Part shown: positions 27,900 through 34,988 of the stretch, piece by piece
Numbering within the stretch: position 1 is the stretch's first letter
Layout of the letters: the number at the start of each line of letters is the position of its first letter
Source of the DNA: a phage
DNA: 64,000 nt
Reading direction: 5' to 3' (one strand)
Sequence record: NC_102531.1
The notes under the pieces: generated by a model
Told to the model about the DNA's origin: nothing
The model's input: only the letters and a program-made list of their open reading frames with translations
The model's database searches: none
Translations under genes and position numbers: made by a program

Positions 27900-27960
27900 C
27901 GTTTGGTGCTCTCCTTAGTTTTTGTGGGGAGGAGTGCCTCCCCTTTATACTCACATCTTA

Positions 27961-28302
27961 CTACTCAAGGTCTTCAGAGTCAAGCTCAAAAAGAATCAAA
28001 CTGTGCATACCTGCAGAGAGATTAACACACCCTGCAACAATAAGGGTTTGATAGTAAGGTTCAGCACCCTCGATGTCTTCGTTAAAATCCACAACAAGAT
28101 AGTCACCTTTGTTAAAGGTGTATTTGTCCGATGTAAACGCAAAACCTGCCCAGTCCCCTACTGCAGGATCTTTATCAGTCACCTTTGTCAGCAGTAGATC
28201 TTTTTCACGAGATCTTTTAGTAAAATCGTGAATCACGACATCCTTCTCTTCAGGAGTTGGATTGCCACACACGTAGTTAACTATATTTCTCCACAAACTC
28301 AT
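27961..28302 (-). CDS. Hypothetical protein (113 aa)
   Basis: ORF. Confidence 0.45.
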   Translation of the reverse strand: MSLWRNIVNYVCGNPTPEEKDVVIHDFTKRSREKDLLLTKVTDKDPAVGDWAGFAFTSDKYTFNKGDYLVVDFNEDIEGAEPYYQTLIVAGCVNLSAGMHSLILFELDSEDLE

Positions 28303-29669
28303 ACGTCCCCCTCTTCTGCTCTGGTTTCAAAATCTTTCCTGACAATTTTGTCTAAGTCAGGAAAGGTTGTATTGTAAAACTCTACGACTCGCGGGTCAAC
28401 AATAATGTCAACTTCTCTTAGTGGACGCAACAAGTTTATTCCTTGTATTGTCTTAACTCGACTCAAAGCAACATACGTCATCCCAGGAGAGAAAGCTCCG
28501 TTCTTTCCAAGGTCCAGGTTGTAACAATCTAGCGTAAGTCCTTGACTTTTATGAGATGTTACGGCGTACCCAGATTTCAGAGGGAGTTGCTTGTATGATC
28601 CAATCACTACCCTCTCTATAAACTTCTCCATCTTCCTTTCTGCAATGTTGTATCTTTGAGATGGCTTATACTCGTTATTCTCCCACAACCTTTGTTCTAT
28701 GTCAACCTGTGTTCCATCTTCAAGCTCTACCACCACCGCCTTGTTCTTAAATTTAACAATTGTGGCACGTGTTCCGTTAACATAATAAGGTACTTTGTGC
28801 GTCGGGTCAACATCGTTGGCGGTTATCATAACTTTCATGCCAATTTTCAACTTCATCTCCTGCTCAACTGGCAAGGTGGAGGGAAACTTACCCTTCATTT
28901 CACCAGTGTATACCTTCTCTGGGGCGTTGATGGCATCATAGAACCTTCTGTTCACTTCCTCTGCTTGTTTGTTGGTGGCGCAAATTGTGAGAGCATCTGT
29001 TGGTACACCGCCTTTGTAACAGCGAGCATTAAGTTCTGCTACAACCTCTTTTATGCGACGACCCTCACGAACACAGTTGAGCATTGTGGCAAATCGAATA
29101 GACTCCTGTCGGAACTGATCTATTAGGGCTATGTTGTGGAGGTCAAGCTCTTTCCAAGATTCGGTATAGCAACACAGGTCCGTATGGTAGAAGTTGAAAT
29201 AGGCTTCCTTCTCCATAGAAGAGACAACAGGAGGTGCCTGGTAAAAATCGCCAAACAATATGACCTGTATGCCTCCGAAAGGTTTGTCATTTTTTCGAAG
29301 GAAGCGGAGTTTCCTATCCATCTCTATAAACTTATCAGCACGGATCATAGAGATTTCATCGATAATTAGGATGGTAAATGCCTTGCTTTTCAAAGGCTTT
29401 GCTGTTTTTGCCCTTATTGCGGTCCAATCTGACTCCATGCTCACACCTGCTGCAAGATCGAAGGTTCGGTGTGCTGTTGCTCCATTAACGTTTAAAGCGG
29501 CTACCCCTGTCGGGGCAACCGTTATGCAAGAGTCTCCATACATCGACTGGATCATGTTGATGAGATACGTCTTCCCACAACCTGCAGGTCCTGAAACGAA
29601 GACATTCTCACCACTCATGATTGCAACGAGGGCAGCATCTGTGCCTACATCATACTGCCCTTTTTCCAT
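28299..29669 (-). CDS. SF1B DNA helicase, Pif1/RecD/Dda-like
   Basis: Walker A GPAGCGKT, APTGVAA, Walker B IIDEISM, GDFYQAPPV, TSHKSQG. Confidence 0.8.
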   Translation of the reverse strand: MEKGQYDVGTDAALVAIMSGENVFVSGPAGCGKTYLINMIQSMYGDSCITVAPTGVAALNVNGATAHRTFDLAAGVSMESDWTAIRAKTAKPLKSKAFTILIIDEISMIRADKFIEMDRKLRFLRKNDKPFGGIQVILFGDFYQAPPVVSSMEKEAYFNFYHTDLCCYTESWKELDLHNIALIDQFRQESIRFATMLNCVREGRRIKEVVAELNARCYKGGVPTDALTICATNKQAEEVNRRFYDAINAPEKVYTGEMKGKFPSTLPVEQEMKLKIGMKVMITANDVDPTHKVPYYVNGTRATIVKFKNKAVVVELEDGTQVDIEQRLWENNEYKPSQRYNIAERKMEKFIERVVIGSYKQLPLKSGYAVTSHKSQGLTLDCYNLDLGKNGAFSPGMTYVALSRVKTIQGINLLRPLREVDIIVDPRVVEFYNTTFPDLDKIVRKDFETRAEEGDV

Positions 29670-30874
29670 TACGCCTCCTCGTAAAGAATGTCGATAGTGT
29701 TACCGTCACGATCAACTACATATTCAATAGGGTCTCCATCTTTGCGTGCTTCCGGAGCTACCACAATCTCATAGCGGCATGCACGGCACTTAGCGCTATT
29801 GTGTTGGTATGGCACACTAACCACATCTGCAGGGTCAACCATAACAGTCATTACAGTGCCGTAGCTCTTTGCATACTCTTTGCTGGCGCAGTGTAAGCCA
29901 TAGGAGCACGCAGCTTCCGGATCATCCTCTACAAAGTTACGAGGCATGGATACAAAAGCCCCCTGGTATTGTGGAACTTTACCACTGTGCCAATCCACCC
30001 ACTTGCTGCCGTTAAACTGAACCCCTTTGTAGCAAATGATTCGACCATCTTCTGCAATCTGAATATCATTGGCCTGCATAAAATCGTAGAGCATGTTTAC
30101 AGATTTTGCAGAAGGATTGCGTAGCAGGCGAACGAGGAATTTCACATAGCGGTCATCCAGTGTTCCGTCTGCATAATCTTTCTCAATTTTCTTTGCAATG
30201 GTGGATCGCATCTCTACACCGTAGTAGTAGAGCTTACCATCTTTCATGATCAGGTTGTCTGCAAGTGTGGTGAACTCATTCTTGCGTTCCAGCCAGACAA
30301 GGATTTCACCAATTGCCTCGTCATATTCCTGAACAGAGATATGGTCGAAGACTTTCTGGTAAACTTCCTCACTTTCGCTGCGGCGAATTTCAAAAATGCC
30401 TTCGTTGCAGGTAATCTGGAGGAGTTCCCCACAAATAACTACCAAAGGCTCAATGCTTCGAGTCTGTTGCTGAGACACACTGCTCACCACCTCCAGCACC
30501 GGATCTTTGACTTCTATTGAAGGTTCTTCTGACTTGATTGCTACCCCAGTGAACCCCACACCGTGAACAACACACAGTGGGTATACCACGCCCCAACGTT
30601 TAACGGAACCTTCGCCTAAATCTAAGATCATGGCGTACTTACCGTTATCTTCCAGACCGTATCGAAATAAACGGGCCTCTTCGCGGGTTTCAAAATCCTC
30701 ACGGGTGTAGCAGACGCTGTCACGGTCAGGATCGAACAACTCTGGGGCACCCACTGCCAGTGTCCAGGTTGTGTCGCCTTTCTCAATGGCACATGTGAAA
30801 CCCTTCTTCTCAAGTTCTGCACGGCGGTCTCGTGCTTCTTTACGGGTTTTGAAATGTTCGTAGATGAAAATCAT
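29669..30874 (-). CDS. Hypothetical protein (401 aa), partner of the GHKL ATPase
   Basis: Long ORF immediately downstream of the GHKL gene; no motif recognised. Confidence 0.55.
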   Translation of the reverse strand: MIFIYEHFKTRKEARDRRAELEKKGFTCAIEKGDTTWTLAVGAPELFDPDRDSVCYTREDFETREEARLFRYGLEDNGKYAMILDLGEGSVKRWGVVYPLCVVHGVGFTGVAIKSEEPSIEVKDPVLEVVSSVSQQQTRSIEPLVVICGELLQITCNEGIFEIRRSESEEVYQKVFDHISVQEYDEAIGEILVWLERKNEFTTLADNLIMKDGKLYYYGVEMRSTIAKKIEKDYADGTLDDRYVKFLVRLLRNPSAKSVNMLYDFMQANDIQIAEDGRIICYKGVQFNGSKWVDWHSGKVPQYQGAFVSMPRNFVEDDPEAACSYGLHCASKEYAKSYGTVMTVMVDPADVVSVPYQHNSAKCRACRYEIVVAPEARKDGDPIEYVVDRDGNTIDILYEEA

Positions 30875-30884
30875 CTTGGTCTCC

Positions 30885-32867
30885 TTATTTGATGTTATTC
30901 TTTGTATCGATCAGTTCACGGTATTCAATCATAGCAGGAGTGTCCCAATATTTCAAGCCTACATGCTTCAAAAGTGGGTATTTCTTTTCCAATCTTGCAA
31001 TATAGGCCTTCCCGCATTTAACTCGGTTGGCGATTAAGATTTTGGCACGATGATTTAGCTCGCTGTGCTTCCACGCGGTGTTACCTTCCCACTTGTGGAA
31101 ATGTGGCCGATAATTTCCAAAATCTTGCATGGGAATAATTTTCCCTAATTGTCTATACAGGCTGTCATATGAAGTTTCATTTGCTGCGCGAGTCAGTAAG
31201 AATTTCCAGGCGTCCTCTTTCAACAAATGTTCCACATTCTTCTCTGTAACATACTGGCAATCAGGATCAGTCCAAAGCAGACGAGATTCTGATACCAGGT
31301 ACAGATCTTCCCCTTCAGGAATCTGGAGTGCCGCACGCACACGGTCATAATTTTGCTGGTAGATGTTACTCATCTGTCCCAGCCAGCAGCTTCCCCGTTG
31401 GATATCTCCCTCATAAGGGATGCAATGCTTAATCTTCTTGAACTCTGCCTTCGTGAGGCGCTCACGATGGAAGTAGCCATCCTCTCTAAGCTTCTTAACC
31501 CAGTAACCCGGCTCGTAACGAGTTTTGGTTTCACCTTTCTTCGAAGGTCGGCGTGGAAGCTCAGATAATAATTTTACCGTATCTGCAAAGAACGGGTGGT
31601 GTGCCGCCTCTTTAAACTCTTTCACCAGATCCGTGTTCCGACAATAGAAAACGTTGCGTCCGGTGATCTCGCTTAAGTAGTTACACTTATTCCGGTTATA
31701 TTTGCCGTCTCCGTCGTTAAATACTAAATAGACTCCCCGTAGGAATTCTACCTTTCCGTAGCAGGAGTAGCCTATGCGGCCTTTATTTAAGCCGCCAGCG
31801 AAGATCTCACAATCTCCCAAACTTCCTAGTCCTGTCTCTTCCCATCGGTCCCACATAAAATTCTTACCGAAGATGTGCCCGAACACTCCACTGTTCTTCA
31901 TCATCTCGCGTGCTTCTGAGGATGTTTTTGCTGTCTCCAATTCCGCAACAACTTCTGCCCCACGAAGACGGATACCTTCTTTGACAAAAGCCTCCAGACG
32001 CTCTTGGAATCCACCATCGTCGTGCCCCTCTATGGTCCATTCGCGCCCAGGATTAATATTGCAATCCCCGATAGGGATCTCTACACAGATTGCAGGGTAG
32101 TCTGTCAATGTTTCCAGAAACTTAGAGCGGTAAGGTTGGTGTCCCATCACCACACGGCTCTCATCAGAGCTGGTATAACCTTTCAGGATGGTCATTTTCC
32201 AACCATCTTTCTCGTAGCGATACTGCGCCTCAACCTTGTCACCTTCCAGCATCTTACTGGTCATAGGGTCGGTAACGGTAAACGGAAACTTTGCATAGCG
32301 TAGGCATGACGCAATAGCAGTGCGATATTTCAGAACATGCTCTTTCTTAACATGGAACTGAACTTTTACCCCGTTGTGCTCTTCAGTCTTCCGCTCGCGG
32401 ATCTTGGTAACGTTTGGGATACCCTGATCCAAGAACAACAGATATGTGCTTTCAACACCGTTGTGCACACTGATCACATCGAAAGTGTCCACCATGCTGA
32501 ACGGGGCCTTTGAACCTACACCTTTATTACCTACCAGAGCGTTGCTGTTGCGCTTGGTTGACTCCCCGAGGTTCATGAAAGTGTTGCGGACCATCTCTTC
32601 CGACATGCCCAATCCAACGTCCTGCACAAAGAAGTATGGTTCAAGGTCTGTAGGAGAGTGAATGATGATCGGTACATCACCCCGTCCAGACTCAACATGG
32701 GAGTCCACAGCATTGAAGATTGGTTCACGGCAGCTTGCCAGCACCTTATCTTCGTAAATCCCTTTAATGATTAGCCCAAAAGTCTCTTTGTTCAGAGAAA
32801 TTGAGCCCCTGGTGACCTCCATATTTCCGGTTAGTACTGCTTTAGTTTCATTACTGTTTACAATCAT
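30885..32867 (-). CDS. GHKL-family ATPase domain protein (660 aa), rIIA-like candidate
   Basis: Bergerat-fold motifs: N-box EPIFNAVDS, G1 VQDVGLGMS, G2 GNKGVGSKAPF; the long C-terminal region is unassigned. Confidence 0.6.
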   Translation of the reverse strand: MIVNSNETKAVLTGNMEVTRGSISLNKETFGLIIKGIYEDKVLASCREPIFNAVDSHVESGRGDVPIIIHSPTDLEPYFFVQDVGLGMSEEMVRNTFMNLGESTKRNSNALVGNKGVGSKAPFSMVDTFDVISVHNGVESTYLLFLDQGIPNVTKIRERKTEEHNGVKVQFHVKKEHVLKYRTAIASCLRYAKFPFTVTDPMTSKMLEGDKVEAQYRYEKDGWKMTILKGYTSSDESRVVMGHQPYRSKFLETLTDYPAICVEIPIGDCNINPGREWTIEGHDDGGFQERLEAFVKEGIRLRGAEVVAELETAKTSSEAREMMKNSGVFGHIFGKNFMWDRWEETGLGSLGDCEIFAGGLNKGRIGYSCYGKVEFLRGVYLVFNDGDGKYNRNKCNYLSEITGRNVFYCRNTDLVKEFKEAAHHPFFADTVKLLSELPRRPSKKGETKTRYEPGYWVKKLREDGYFHRERLTKAEFKKIKHCIPYEGDIQRGSCWLGQMSNIYQQNYDRVRAALQIPEGEDLYLVSESRLLWTDPDCQYVTEKNVEHLLKEDAWKFLLTRAANETSYDSLYRQLGKIIPMQDFGNYRPHFHKWEGNTAWKHSELNHRAKILIANRVKCGKAYIARLEKKYPLLKHVGLKYWDTPAMIEYRELIDTKNNIK

Positions 32868-33364
32868 TTATTGCGCTCCTTGTAGTAGATATGACTCCCG
32901 AATTGAGCTGTCCTCTGCATCTTTTTTGCCCATTTCGGTCGTACTTTGGTTGTATGGTAGTGTGTTGCTCCACCTGTTATGTCCATAGCCATGTATGCAA
33001 CATGGTTGTTATTATAGACCTTTAGAAGCATCTTTGCAAGACTTTTAGCGTGATCCCATGAATCTTTTTCTGTCACCTTAAAAGTTTTGCCGTGGTTTGT
33101 CCACGAAAACTGGTTAGGTTGGTAGACAATCTTTCTTATAGTGTCTGGGTATTTGGGGTGAGATTTCCTGTTTAGTGTGGCAAACCCTGATGCCAGCATA
33201 CCCATCGTGCCATCCCCTCTAGCCTCCCTGTAGATATTGCATGCCAGAATGTTTTCCTTAGTATCTGAGGGCTTGCAAGTATGATATACTTTTTGTTTTG
33301 GTGCTGCAACAACAGGCAGCGATAAAAGTGCGCTCAAAATAATAGCAAAGATCTTAATTTTCAC
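32864..33364 (-). CDS. Secreted cell-wall hydrolase, SleB/CwlJ-like (candidate endolysin)
   Basis: Signal peptide MKIKIFAIILSALLSLPVVA; NIYREARG...QPNQFSW motif; GTG start; ATGA overlap with the GHKL gene. Confidence 0.6.
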   Translation of the reverse strand: MKIKIFAIILSALLSLPVVAAPKQKVYHTCKPSDTKENILACNIYREARGDGTMGMLASGFATLNRKSHPKYPDTIRKIVYQPNQFSWTNHGKTFKVTEKDSWDHAKSLAKMLLKVYNNNHVAYMAMDITGGATHYHTTKVRPKWAKKMQRTAQFGSHIYYKERNK

Positions 33365-33369
33365 AATGA

Positions 33370-33400
33370 CTCCAAATAGAAAATCCCCGCCGAAGCGGGG
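33370..33400 (-). terminator. Intrinsic terminator (CCCCGCTTCGGCGGGG then ATTTTCTATTT)
   Basis: Same 16-nt hairpin as at 59811..59826. Confidence 0.55.
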
Positions 33401-33412
33401 AGGTCTTAGAAA

Positions 33413-33841
33413 TTAATCGTAGTGTGCCAAAATCTCTCCATCGTTGCAAGTTCCCTCTACAAAGTTATGAAGATTCATGCACTCATCTTGATAGAAGAAT
33501 TTACCGCTTTTCAGCCGTAGGCCAAACAACTCCGCATCTCCACGATGGCAAGCCTCTACAAGTTCATAGATTTCATACGGCAACTCTCCGTCGTCATGGA
33601 AGAATCCAGCCTTATCGTTGACATAAATGAAGAAATAATCACTGCTATCGCAAGCATCCAATATTTTAAACCAGATTTCATCTACATCTTTTTCTCGGAT
33701 ATCGATCACGCAAGTGGAGCTGCATTCGTACTCCTTCTCCGGCTCCTCGGTCAATACCACCAGGTAGTTTCCCCGCTTACCTACTTTAGCCATACAACCC
33801 CCCTTAAGCTTTAGCCAAAATGGCGCTAAACTCTTCACCAA
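33413..33841 (-). CDS. Hypothetical Cys-containing protein (142 aa)
   Basis: ORF. Confidence 0.45.
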   Translation of the reverse strand: MVKSLAPFWLKLKGGCMAKVGKRGNYLVVLTEEPEKEYECSSTCVIDIREKDVDEIWFKILDACDSSDYFFIYVNDKAGFFHDDGELPYEIYELVEACHRGDAELFGLRLKSGKFFYQDECMNLHNFVEGTCNDGEILAHYD

Positions 33842-34988
33842 ACTCTTTTACAATCTTCATCAGGTTTGGGTATGCTTTGATCAGCTGAGCAACAATCTTG
33901 TCACGCCCTTTACCGATAAGCAAGGCATTTCCTAAGGCATTAGGTTTCATCATCGCCATAAAGACTGAGAATACAAAATCTCGGTTCTCGTCCTTGAAGT
34001 TTTCCCAAAGGAAATCGAGGAAGTTTGCCACGCAGCTGACAAGATCTTCGTCTGAGATACTTGCATTTTCCATCATATTACGAATAGCGATACAACCTTC
34101 AGATCCAAGAATCCACAAAATGTCTGGCTGCTTAGGACCTACGTATTCTTTGCAGCCACCTGCCATAATCCGACCGATTTCCGGTAAATTGCGTTTCTTG
34201 GTGTGGTATGTCCAGATCTCTACCGCTGCAGTGTGACCAATAGCACCTTGCAGAAGAATACGGGACATAGCGTCAGAAATAATACCGCTGTCAAAATCGT
34301 GCAAGATGTCAGATGCAGCAACCCAAGATCGTGGTGTGGCAAAAGATGGACAATTAATCTCAGCCATAGCCTCATAATTATCAATAGCTGATGGAACTCT
34401 TTTCAGATACCCAATTACAGAGGAGTGAACCCCGTTGAGGAATGCGTAGTCCTCAATAAACACCTCTGCATTGCTTGTAACCTCTACAATGATAAAGCGG
34501 TTAGCCAGAGGGGCTTCGAGCGCCGAAAGAACCGCACCATCTGTAGAACGGTTACCCGCAGCCACAAAAACAGAACCCTTAGGGAATGCATAGGTGCCGC
34601 ACTTGTGGTCAAGCATAATTTGCATTGCAACCTTTTGCAGGTAGTTATCTGCATGAGTGAGCTCATCCAGAAAGATAATTCCGCTCCAGTCAGGATCCGC
34701 AGGCCAAAATTCTGGAATTGCAAACACTGTACGTGTAGTTCCATCCGCTTCTACAGGGATAGGTAGCCCAGATAAGTCGGCAGGATCTTTATCTGACAGT
34801 CGCACGTCAACAAGGTTGTCATCTCGCTCACCGAACATATTATCAGCGATCTGCTTCATCACCTGGCTTTTACCCACACCCATTGGTCCCAAAATTAGGA
34901 CAGATCGGCTATGACGTTGGGCAAACTGAATAATAGCTGGCAACTCACGGACAGTGATTTGACCACTTTCGAATACGTTTCTTGACAT
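33804..34988 (-). CDS. AAA+ ATPase, MoxR/CbbQ/CobS-like
   Basis: Walker A GPMGVGKS, Walker B IIFLDELTHA, AAA_5-like layout. Confidence 0.7.
   Translation of the reverse strand: MSRNVFESGQITVRELPAIIQFAQRHSRSVLILGPMGVGKSQVMKQIADNMFGERDDNLVDVRLSDKDPADLSGLPIPVEADGTTRTVFAIPEFWPADPDWSGIIFLDELTHADNYLQKVAMQIMLDHKCGTYAFPKGSVFVAAGNRSTDGAVLSALEAPLANRFIIVEVTSNAEVFIEDYAFLNGVHSSVIGYLKRVPSAIDNYEAMAEINCPSFATPRSWVAASDILHDFDSGIISDAMSRILLQGAIGHTAAVEIWTYHTKKRNLPEIGRIMAGGCKEYVGPKQPDILWILGSEGCIAIRNMMENASISDEDLVSCVANFLDFLWENFKDENRDFVFSVFMAMMKPNALGNALLIGKGRDKIVAQLIKAYPNLMKIVKEFGEEFSAILAKA

Follow-up and report, generated by a model that had tools for sequence, protein, structure and literature searches.

The rIIA–rIIB Gene Pair of a Vequintavirus: A Probable Accessory Counter-Defence Module

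Introduction

The rII genes of bacteriophage T4 are historically famous for Benzer's fine-structure mapping and the triplet code. In T4, rIIA (725 amino acid residues, aa) is followed immediately by rIIB (312 aa) on the same strand, and classical T4 biochemistry places both proteins in association with the inner membrane. The subject of this work is a pair of adjacent genes in a 64,000-nucleotide stretch of phage DNA from the sequence record NC_102531.1 (hereinafter, the window). They encode proteins of 660 and 401 aa, and an earlier note, made from the sequence alone, had described them as possibly rIIA/rIIB-like.

According to Iyer et al. (2021, PMC7824862), rIIA consists of a GHKL domain and a highly variable C-terminus. 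The rII mechanism was termed unclear by Wein et al., who reported that the rIIB protein of phage T6 is toxic on its own and triggers CARD-gasdermin systems (PMC10312443). The paper on the RexA structure showed that DNA binding by RexA is not sufficient to explain exclusion (PMC11077077).

The window is DNA of a Vequintavirus, an rV5-like E. coli myovirus. The closest match to the whole locus is O157 typing phage 14 of E. coli (KP869112.1; 98% nucleotide identity), and about 120 further records, nearly all of them Vequintavirus (rV5-like) E. coli myoviruses, match the region at 92–97% nucleotide identity. The pair is already known, having been annotated and experimentally probed in near-identical phages.

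Results and Discussion

Identification of the rIIA–rIIB Pair

The locus is very probably a Vequintavirus rIIA–rIIB accessory counter-defence pair, dispensable on naive K-12 and needed on hosts with lambda RexAB. Within this reading, rIIA is a two-domain ATPase of the GHL type (gyrase B/Hsp90/MutL/MORC-like), and rIIB combines a conserved core with an N-terminal SPOR-like double repeat. Two adjacent co-directional ORFs were found on the minus strand exactly where the earlier note had placed them (Table 1), and the profile search against the rIIA and rIIB families that it had proposed as a check was positive for both. The 660-aa protein matches the PHROGs family phrog_612 'RIIA' with an E-value of 3.2e-124, its residues 1–658 being aligned with positions 1–724 of the 725 in the profile. 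The 401-aa protein matches phrog_609 'RIIB' with an E-value of 1.4e-61 (residues 132–375), and PF26926 is precomputed on rIIB homologues.

Both proteins also match their T4 counterparts directly in BLASTP. Residues 1–198 of rIIA align with T4 residues 1–196 (E 3e-21) with just 28% identity, and residues 172–371 of rIIB align with T4 residues 107–304 (E 4e-39, 37% identity). Profiles built from homologues gathered in this analysis extended these matches to T4 rIIA residues 1–402 (E 5.8e-66) and T4 rIIB residues 72–306 (E 2.7e-54). T4 has its two genes in this order too, adjacent and on one strand. Thus, it is established that both proteins are homologous to T4 rIIA and rIIB, that the genes are arranged as in T4 and that the ATP-binding motifs described below are intact, and the tentative rII assignment of the earlier note is supported.

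The neighbours differ from those of T4, where rIIA.1 and topoisomerase gene 60 lie beside rIIA and denB lies beside rIIB. The GHKL ATPase could in principle belong to another family (topoisomerase, MutL, MORC, Hsp90, sacsin or a restriction-enzyme ATPase) and have an unrelated neighbour. A similarity of the GHL fold and weak matches to sacsin, HtpG-like, BbrUII restriction-enzyme and TmtA models would fit this explanation. These matches are far under the curated cut-offs, however (for example, 18 bits against 455 for the HtpG-like model), whereas rIIA has a full-length family match, its partner matches rIIB and both match the T4 proteins. This explanation is refuted by the PHROGs, T4 BLASTP and profile matches, and its probability is negligible; placement in another family such as topoisomerase or MORC, which the earlier note had named as the outcome that would overturn its reading, did not occur. 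The NCBIfam and PADLOC searches of the pair yielded sub-threshold noise only.

Table 1. Features of the rIIA–rIIB locus in window coordinates.
Feature	Position	Strand	Remarks
Intrinsic-terminator-like hairpin	33384..33401	(-)	Precedes the SleB-like gene and bounds the gene run on its 5' side
rIIA gene	30885..32867	(-)	660 aa, 75.8 kDa, isoelectric point (pI) 8.4
Bergerat-fold (GHKL) ATP-binding domain, rIIA residues about 26–190	32298..32792	(-)	
Transducer-like second domain, rIIA residues about 195–285	32013..32285	(-)	Invariant P-G-R275-E276
C-terminal region, rIIA residues 286–660	30885..32012	(-)	Helical and mixed; poorly conserved past about 400
rIIB ribosome-binding site GGAG	30881..30884	(-)	Inside the rIIA–rIIB gap; TAAGGAGACCAAG-ATG
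rIIB gene	29669..30874	(-)	401 aa, 45.8 kDa, pI 4.9
Tandem beta-alpha-beta-beta repeats (about 3–42 and 55–101), rIIB residues 1–101	30572..30874	(-)	SPOR-like, lineage-specific
Variable linker, rIIB residues 102–142	30449..30571	(-)	Predicted disordered; predicted local distance difference test score (pLDDT) <50 over 100–141
Conserved rIIB core, residues 143–375	29750..30448	(-)	Common to T4 rIIB

Relatives and Existing Annotation

More than 100 relatives in GenBank, including rV5, annotate the pair as rIIA/rIIB; public annotation of this kind was found in rV5, Murica, inoa and MaxBurger. In the Vequintavirus orthologues (rV5, Murica, EdH4 and Bas54), the lengths of 660 and 401 aa, the gene order and the neighbours are all the same as in the window. 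The amino acid identity is 96–99.5%, with just 2–19 substitutions per protein and untouched ATPase motifs. The rIIB of rV5 is 99.5% identical to that of the window. In EdH4, a Vequintavirus of the species murica, 643 of the 660 rIIA residues and 389 of the 401 rIIB residues are identical (97%). In Bas54 (the same phage as MaxBurger), the corresponding counts are 650/660 and 399/401 (98.5–99.5%).

The annotation of the rII genes is inconsistent across the genus. Both are still named 'hypothetical protein' in KP869112.1, LC739540, KY683736 and others; rIIB is a 'SPOR domain-containing protein' in ECML-10, and rIIA is an 'ATP-binding protein' in B9-1. In some Vequintavirus records, the pair is alternatively labelled 'membrane integrity protector'. 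In addition, 16 'Campylobacter phage' records with C. jejuni as host (MG0656xx, e.g., MG065659 and MG065655) are 95–97% identical to the locus; they are probably mislabelled or contaminating coliphages.

A further source of confusion is related to the natural fusions of the two genes. The rIIA–rIIB fusion of phage RB43 has 1,049 aa, and fusions of this type (about 1,050 aa; phrog_609) combine a GHKL N-terminus with a C-terminal rIIB core. Both modules are thus the same as in the window, where they are separate polypeptides encoded 10 nucleotides (nt) apart. The phrog_609 profile has 1,055 positions; its start matches rIIA residues 26–183 of the window protein (E 1.2e-23), and its end matches rIIB. 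This family, named 'RIIB lysis inhibitor', was evidently built around RB43-type fusions, and therefore rIIA genes can be automatically mislabelled as rIIB.

Architecture of the rIIA Protein

The N-terminal Bergerat ATPase with N-box, G1 and G2 motifs described in the earlier note was confirmed. The match of rIIA to Pfam HATPase_c_3 is above the cut-off (E 1.8e-8). The motifs N-box (E48, N52, D55), G1 (D83, G85, G87) and G2 (G113, G116, G118) are intact, aligned with those of T4 and invariant in the alignment of rIIA homologues (alignment A2). In T4 rIIA, these motifs occupy nearly the same positions, and a second domain with a P-x-R-E motif is also present; in A2, the R275 and E276 residues of this motif are invariant. 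The Bergerat domain followed by the transducer (ribosomal-S5-like) domain makes one ATPase module, as in GHL ATPases. Since a transducer-like domain follows, rIIA has the two-domain GHL arrangement, beyond a bare Bergerat domain. We propose that R275 may serve as the gamma-phosphate sensor of rIIA, by analogy with the Lys/Arg of GHL enzymes.

The C-terminal region is peculiar to rIIA. The profile alignment to T4 rIIA ends at about 395–402, and the C-terminal 260–320 or so residues have no BLAST-detectable similarity to T4. The sole Pfam match of this region is DUF7003, which is sub-threshold. As the earlier note had claimed for topoisomerase, MutL and kinase output domains, the Pfam and NCBIfam searches detected no Toprim, endonuclease, DHp, CW/coiled-coil, Hsp90 middle/C or other output domains in rIIA. 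The protein has no significant sequence-level membership in the GHL ATPases (Hsp90/TRAP1, GyrB/ParE/topoisomerase II, MutL, MORC and SMCHD1). It also lacks their output and dimerisation domains, and where those enzymes have DNA-cleavage or client-binding domains, rIIA has rIIB as its partner.

The sequence searches against PDB found no structure for rIIA or rIIB, the best E-value for rIIA being 0.11. In comparisons of predicted structures, the closest relatives of rIIA include ParE, T6 topoisomerase II, MutL, MORC and SMCHD1, all of which act on DNA. The possibility that rIIA is a DNA-acting GHL ATPase (topoisomerase/MutL/MORC-like) and rIIB a DNA-binding transcription regulator should therefore be considered; phage or host DNA transactions would be modulated, and the Rex phenotype would be secondary. 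The rII genes do lie among replication genes (helicase, methylases, primase and polymerase), and the rIIA orthologue is called 'putative DNA-binding rIIA protein' in some records. One distant protein with the rIIB core has a weak N-terminal helix-turn-helix match, and rIIB orthologues are listed as a specific transcription factor by Iyer et al. (2021, PMC7824862). However, output domains of the Toprim, endonuclease or CW/coiled-coil kind are missing from rIIA, and Hsp90-type chaperones score at least as high as the DNA enzymes in the structure comparison. The rIIB protein is acidic (pI 4.9), with no DNA-binding fold or domain seen, and phage Bas54 tolerates insertions in both genes without a fitness call. 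A primary role in DNA transactions is thus unlikely.

Architecture of the rIIB Protein

The rIIB protein consists of an N-terminal double repeat, a linker and the core. In the predicted structure (pLDDT 71.5), the well-predicted part comprises residues 144–401, and the linker is gap-rich and variable in the alignment of rIIB homologues (alignment A1). A search of BFVD using Foldseek gave 31 significant matches, and all 31 are rIIB proteins from T4-like, N4-like, Caulobacter, Delftia, Vibrio and cyanobacterial phages. An ADP-ribosyltransferase fold was also considered for the core and rejected; the cluster of weak hits was followed up, no significant structural match was found and the viral library returned rIIB only. 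The core is represented by 7,594 cluster representatives at E<=0.001, and tblastn detected it in 2,877 of 50,697 phage records. Proteins of this family carry variable N- or C-terminal appendages, and a Pfam scan of ten long proteins with the rIIB core revealed no recurring accessory domain.

Two other proteins of this family deserve mention. An unexpected combination was observed in a protein of 445 aa (P0252), in which the rIIB core (29–231) is followed by a phosphopantetheine-attachment (acyl-carrier) domain (286–352, E 2.6e-13). A metagenomic protein of 498 aa (P0005) on a 3.3-kb contig has TPR repeats and a C-terminal segment 99% identical to rIIB; it is probably an assembly chimera, not a real fusion.

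The internal repeat at the N-terminus of rIIB is statistically real, with a local score of 45 against 20.3 +/- 4.0 for shuffled sequences. The motif F-x-[TS]-R-x-[ED]-A-R...W occurs in it twice and is kept in Vequintavirinae-like homologues. The tblastn search found the double repeat only in Vequintavirus records. The rIIB N-terminus does not align with that of T4 rIIB, whose own first 70 or so residues are unrelated and which lacks both the double repeat and the linker. The SPOR-like double repeat is a feature of Vequintavirinae and close relatives and is absent from T4 rIIB.

The SPOR fold (PF05036) is known for peptidoglycan binding, and to bind septal peptidoglycan, a SPOR domain needs to be in the periplasm. 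No signal peptide was found at the rIIB N-terminus MIFIYEHFKTRKEARD, and no convincing transmembrane segments were found in rIIA or rIIB, the top hydropathy (1.69) falling in the non-conserved rIIB region 95–113. As there is no signal peptide or membrane anchor, the SPOR-like module cannot be a periplasmic peptidoglycan binder. One speculative suggestion is that the repeat is a targeting or ligand-binding module that might recognise a precursor of the cell envelope, a nucleic acid or some component of host defence. It would give the pair a specificity beyond, or other than, lambda RexAB, perhaps tied to the SleB-like hydrolase gene co-transcribed directly upstream. The proximity of this secreted hydrolase to an rIIB protein that has a fold of the peptidoglycan-binding type yet no export signal is curious.

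The same module bears on the view that the two proteins are 'lysis inhibitors', which would delay lysis via the holin–endolysin pathway and would fit the neighbouring cell-wall hydrolase gene. The PHROGs category of the families is 'lysis', many GenBank entries bear the name 'rIIA/rIIB lysis inhibitor', the rIIA start overlaps the stop of the hydrolase gene, and the SPOR-like fold could also be cited in favour. This label is nevertheless historical: it comes from the rapid-lysis plaque type, and T4 genetics indicates that true lysis inhibition needs rI and the holin. In addition, without a signal peptide or anchor, the SPOR-like module cannot reach peptidoglycan, and the phenotype tested in the orthologues is a matter of Rex rather than of when lysis occurs. 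A direct role in lysis timing is very improbable.

Functional Data on Orthologues

The text of the CRISPRi-ART study (PMC11879866) describes knockdown of RIIA or RIIB in phages T4, MM02, EdH4, SUSP1 and N4. Plating was unaffected on Rex-minus E. coli, and its efficiency was lower on E. coli with lambda RexAB. The Rex-dependent phenotype is thus common to T4 and the Vequintavirus EdH4, and the link to abortive infection suggested in the earlier note is documented experimentally, in the text of that study, for an orthologous pair 97% identical to that of the window. In Bas54, transposon insertions were obtained in 90 of the 101 TA sites of rIIA and in 56 of the 59 TA sites of rIIB, and both genes were called non-essential on K-12 (HIDEN-SEQ preprint, 10.1101/2025.11.20.689424). 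The rII genes classically behave in this way: they become necessary only when the defence that they match is present in the host.

Several points weigh against the counter-defence reading set out above. The function is transferred from orthologues with 97–99.5% identity, not from this exact phage, and the text of the CRISPRi-ART study states the Rex result for EdH4 collectively for five phages. In one comparison with a clinical isolate, given in the HIDEN-SEQ preprint (10.1101/2025.11.20.689424), the Bas54 rII genes were not depleted (log2 fold change, log2FC, −0.01 and −0.34). The structural inferences are based on AlphaFold2 models from shallow alignments (20–23 sequences), and ATP hydrolysis, dimerisation, rIIA–rIIB binding and membrane association are proposals here. 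Finally, RexAB affected very few wild-type phages in the BASEL survey, whose authors question defence as its main role; because of this, the natural target of rII may be other than RexAB.

This last point leads to the possibility that rIIA and rIIB are genuine and lambda RexAB is a mere laboratory read-out. The broader role would be to protect membrane energetics or to counter further defence systems, and specificity would depend on what is peculiar to the lineage, namely the C-terminus of rIIA and the SPOR-like N-terminus of rIIB. The rIIB core is extremely widespread, including in phages of Streptomyces, Vibrio, Caulobacter and cyanobacteria, hosts that are unlikely to carry lambda Rex, and each of the two proteins has highly variable appendages attached to a conserved core. 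The toxicity of rIIB alone and its sensing by CARD-gasdermin systems point in the same direction, as does the flagging of the Bas37 RIIA/RIIB orthologues as conditionally important in uropathogenic isolates in a figure legend. On the other hand, the text on the knockdowns reports activity against lambda RexAB for every rII module examined; these modules are divergent and come from four phage subfamilies, with a Vequintavirus among the phages. Since this is so, the anti-Rex activity is a conserved property, not a T4 peculiarity. The clinical-isolate comparison in which the Bas54 rII genes were undepleted also speaks against a broader role. We regard this explanation as possible, with less than even chances; it is plausibly compatible with the counter-defence pair proposed here and does not exclude it.

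Proposed Mechanism

The rIIA and rIIB proteins may act as one complex, as suggested by their tight adjacency everywhere, the RB43 fusion and the phrog_609 profile matching both. In this model, rIIA would work as a GHL-type clamp that is driven by ATP and dimerises, with putative roles for E48 as the catalytic base, for N52 in Mg binding, for D83 in adenine binding and for R275 as the gamma-phosphate sensor. The RexB membrane channel, whose opening depends on RexA, would be kept shut by the complex, or the upstream trigger of this opening would be prevented. With Rex blocked, the membrane would stay energised, its potential would be kept and the infection would proceed. Any membrane association of the rII proteins would have to be peripheral, because neither a signal peptide nor a conserved transmembrane segment is present in them.

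Gene Neighbourhood

The genes form a run on the minus strand in the order SleB-like hydrolase, rIIA, rIIB and helicase. The rIIA start overlaps the stop of the SleB-like gene (ATGA), the rIIA stop (30885) and the rIIB start (30874) are on the same strand with a 10-nt gap, and the rIIB stop overlaps the start of the Pif1/Dda-like helicase gene (TAATG). The hairpin at the 5' limit of the run is supported as a terminator, since a terminator is independently annotated at the same place in the GenBank records of phages Murica and EdH4. The promoter scan found 21 sites against 23 expected by chance; therefore, no promoter is claimed.

The signal peptide encoded by the SleB/CwlJ-like cell-wall hydrolase gene (32864-33364, minus strand) is clear: VKIKIFAIILSALLSLPVVAAP. 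A MoxR-like AAA+ ATPase gene (33804-34988, minus strand) lies two genes upstream of rIIA, and its product is identical at 392 of 394 residues to bas54_0063. In the HIDEN-SEQ preprint (10.1101/2025.11.20.689424), bas54_0063 is an anti-defence gene against the predicted system DS-28, with a log2FC of −7.23 in a clinical isolate. Because of this similarity, at least one other counter-defence gene is present in the rII stretch.

The Pif1/Dda-like helicase gene (28299-29669, minus strand), located directly downstream of rIIB, encodes a protein identical at 455 of 456 residues to bas54_0068. The latter is non-essential on K-12 and was strongly depleted in a clinical isolate (log2FC −6.32) according to HIDEN-SEQ Data S6 (10.1101/2025.11.20.689424); the isolate is ambiguous, as the sheet header gives CFE303 and the command-line files give '311'. 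Further downstream, between a small ORF (27961-28302) and a methyltransferase gene, there is a strong GC-rich hairpin, GGGGAGGAGTGCCTCCCC (27926-27943). A T-run follows it only on the plus strand, and the neighbouring genes are all on the minus strand.

Significance

The same genes carry annotation in more than 100 relatives and were probed experimentally in EdH4 and Bas54, so that this instance offers nothing new in kind. The residual novelty lies in the lineage-specific SPOR-like module of rIIB and the general rII mechanism, and in nothing else. The analysis contributes a defined boundary between the conserved rIIB core (143–375) and this module, as well as a structural argument, based on models, that rIIA may be an ATPase clamp of the GHL type in which Arg275 is a candidate for the phosphate sensor. 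It also shows that O157 typing phage 14, whose record is the closest, and several other records still label the rII genes 'hypothetical'. All three gains are modest.

Because these genes are so famous and the way they work is still a puzzle, it is important in annotation to call them rII correctly. For the phage itself, the call marks an accessory counter-defence module and predicts that rII-deficient derivatives would be sensitive to Rex-like prophage defences. An analogy with T6 rIIB suggests that, through the rIIB protein of the window, the phage may in addition be sensed by CARD-gasdermin systems.

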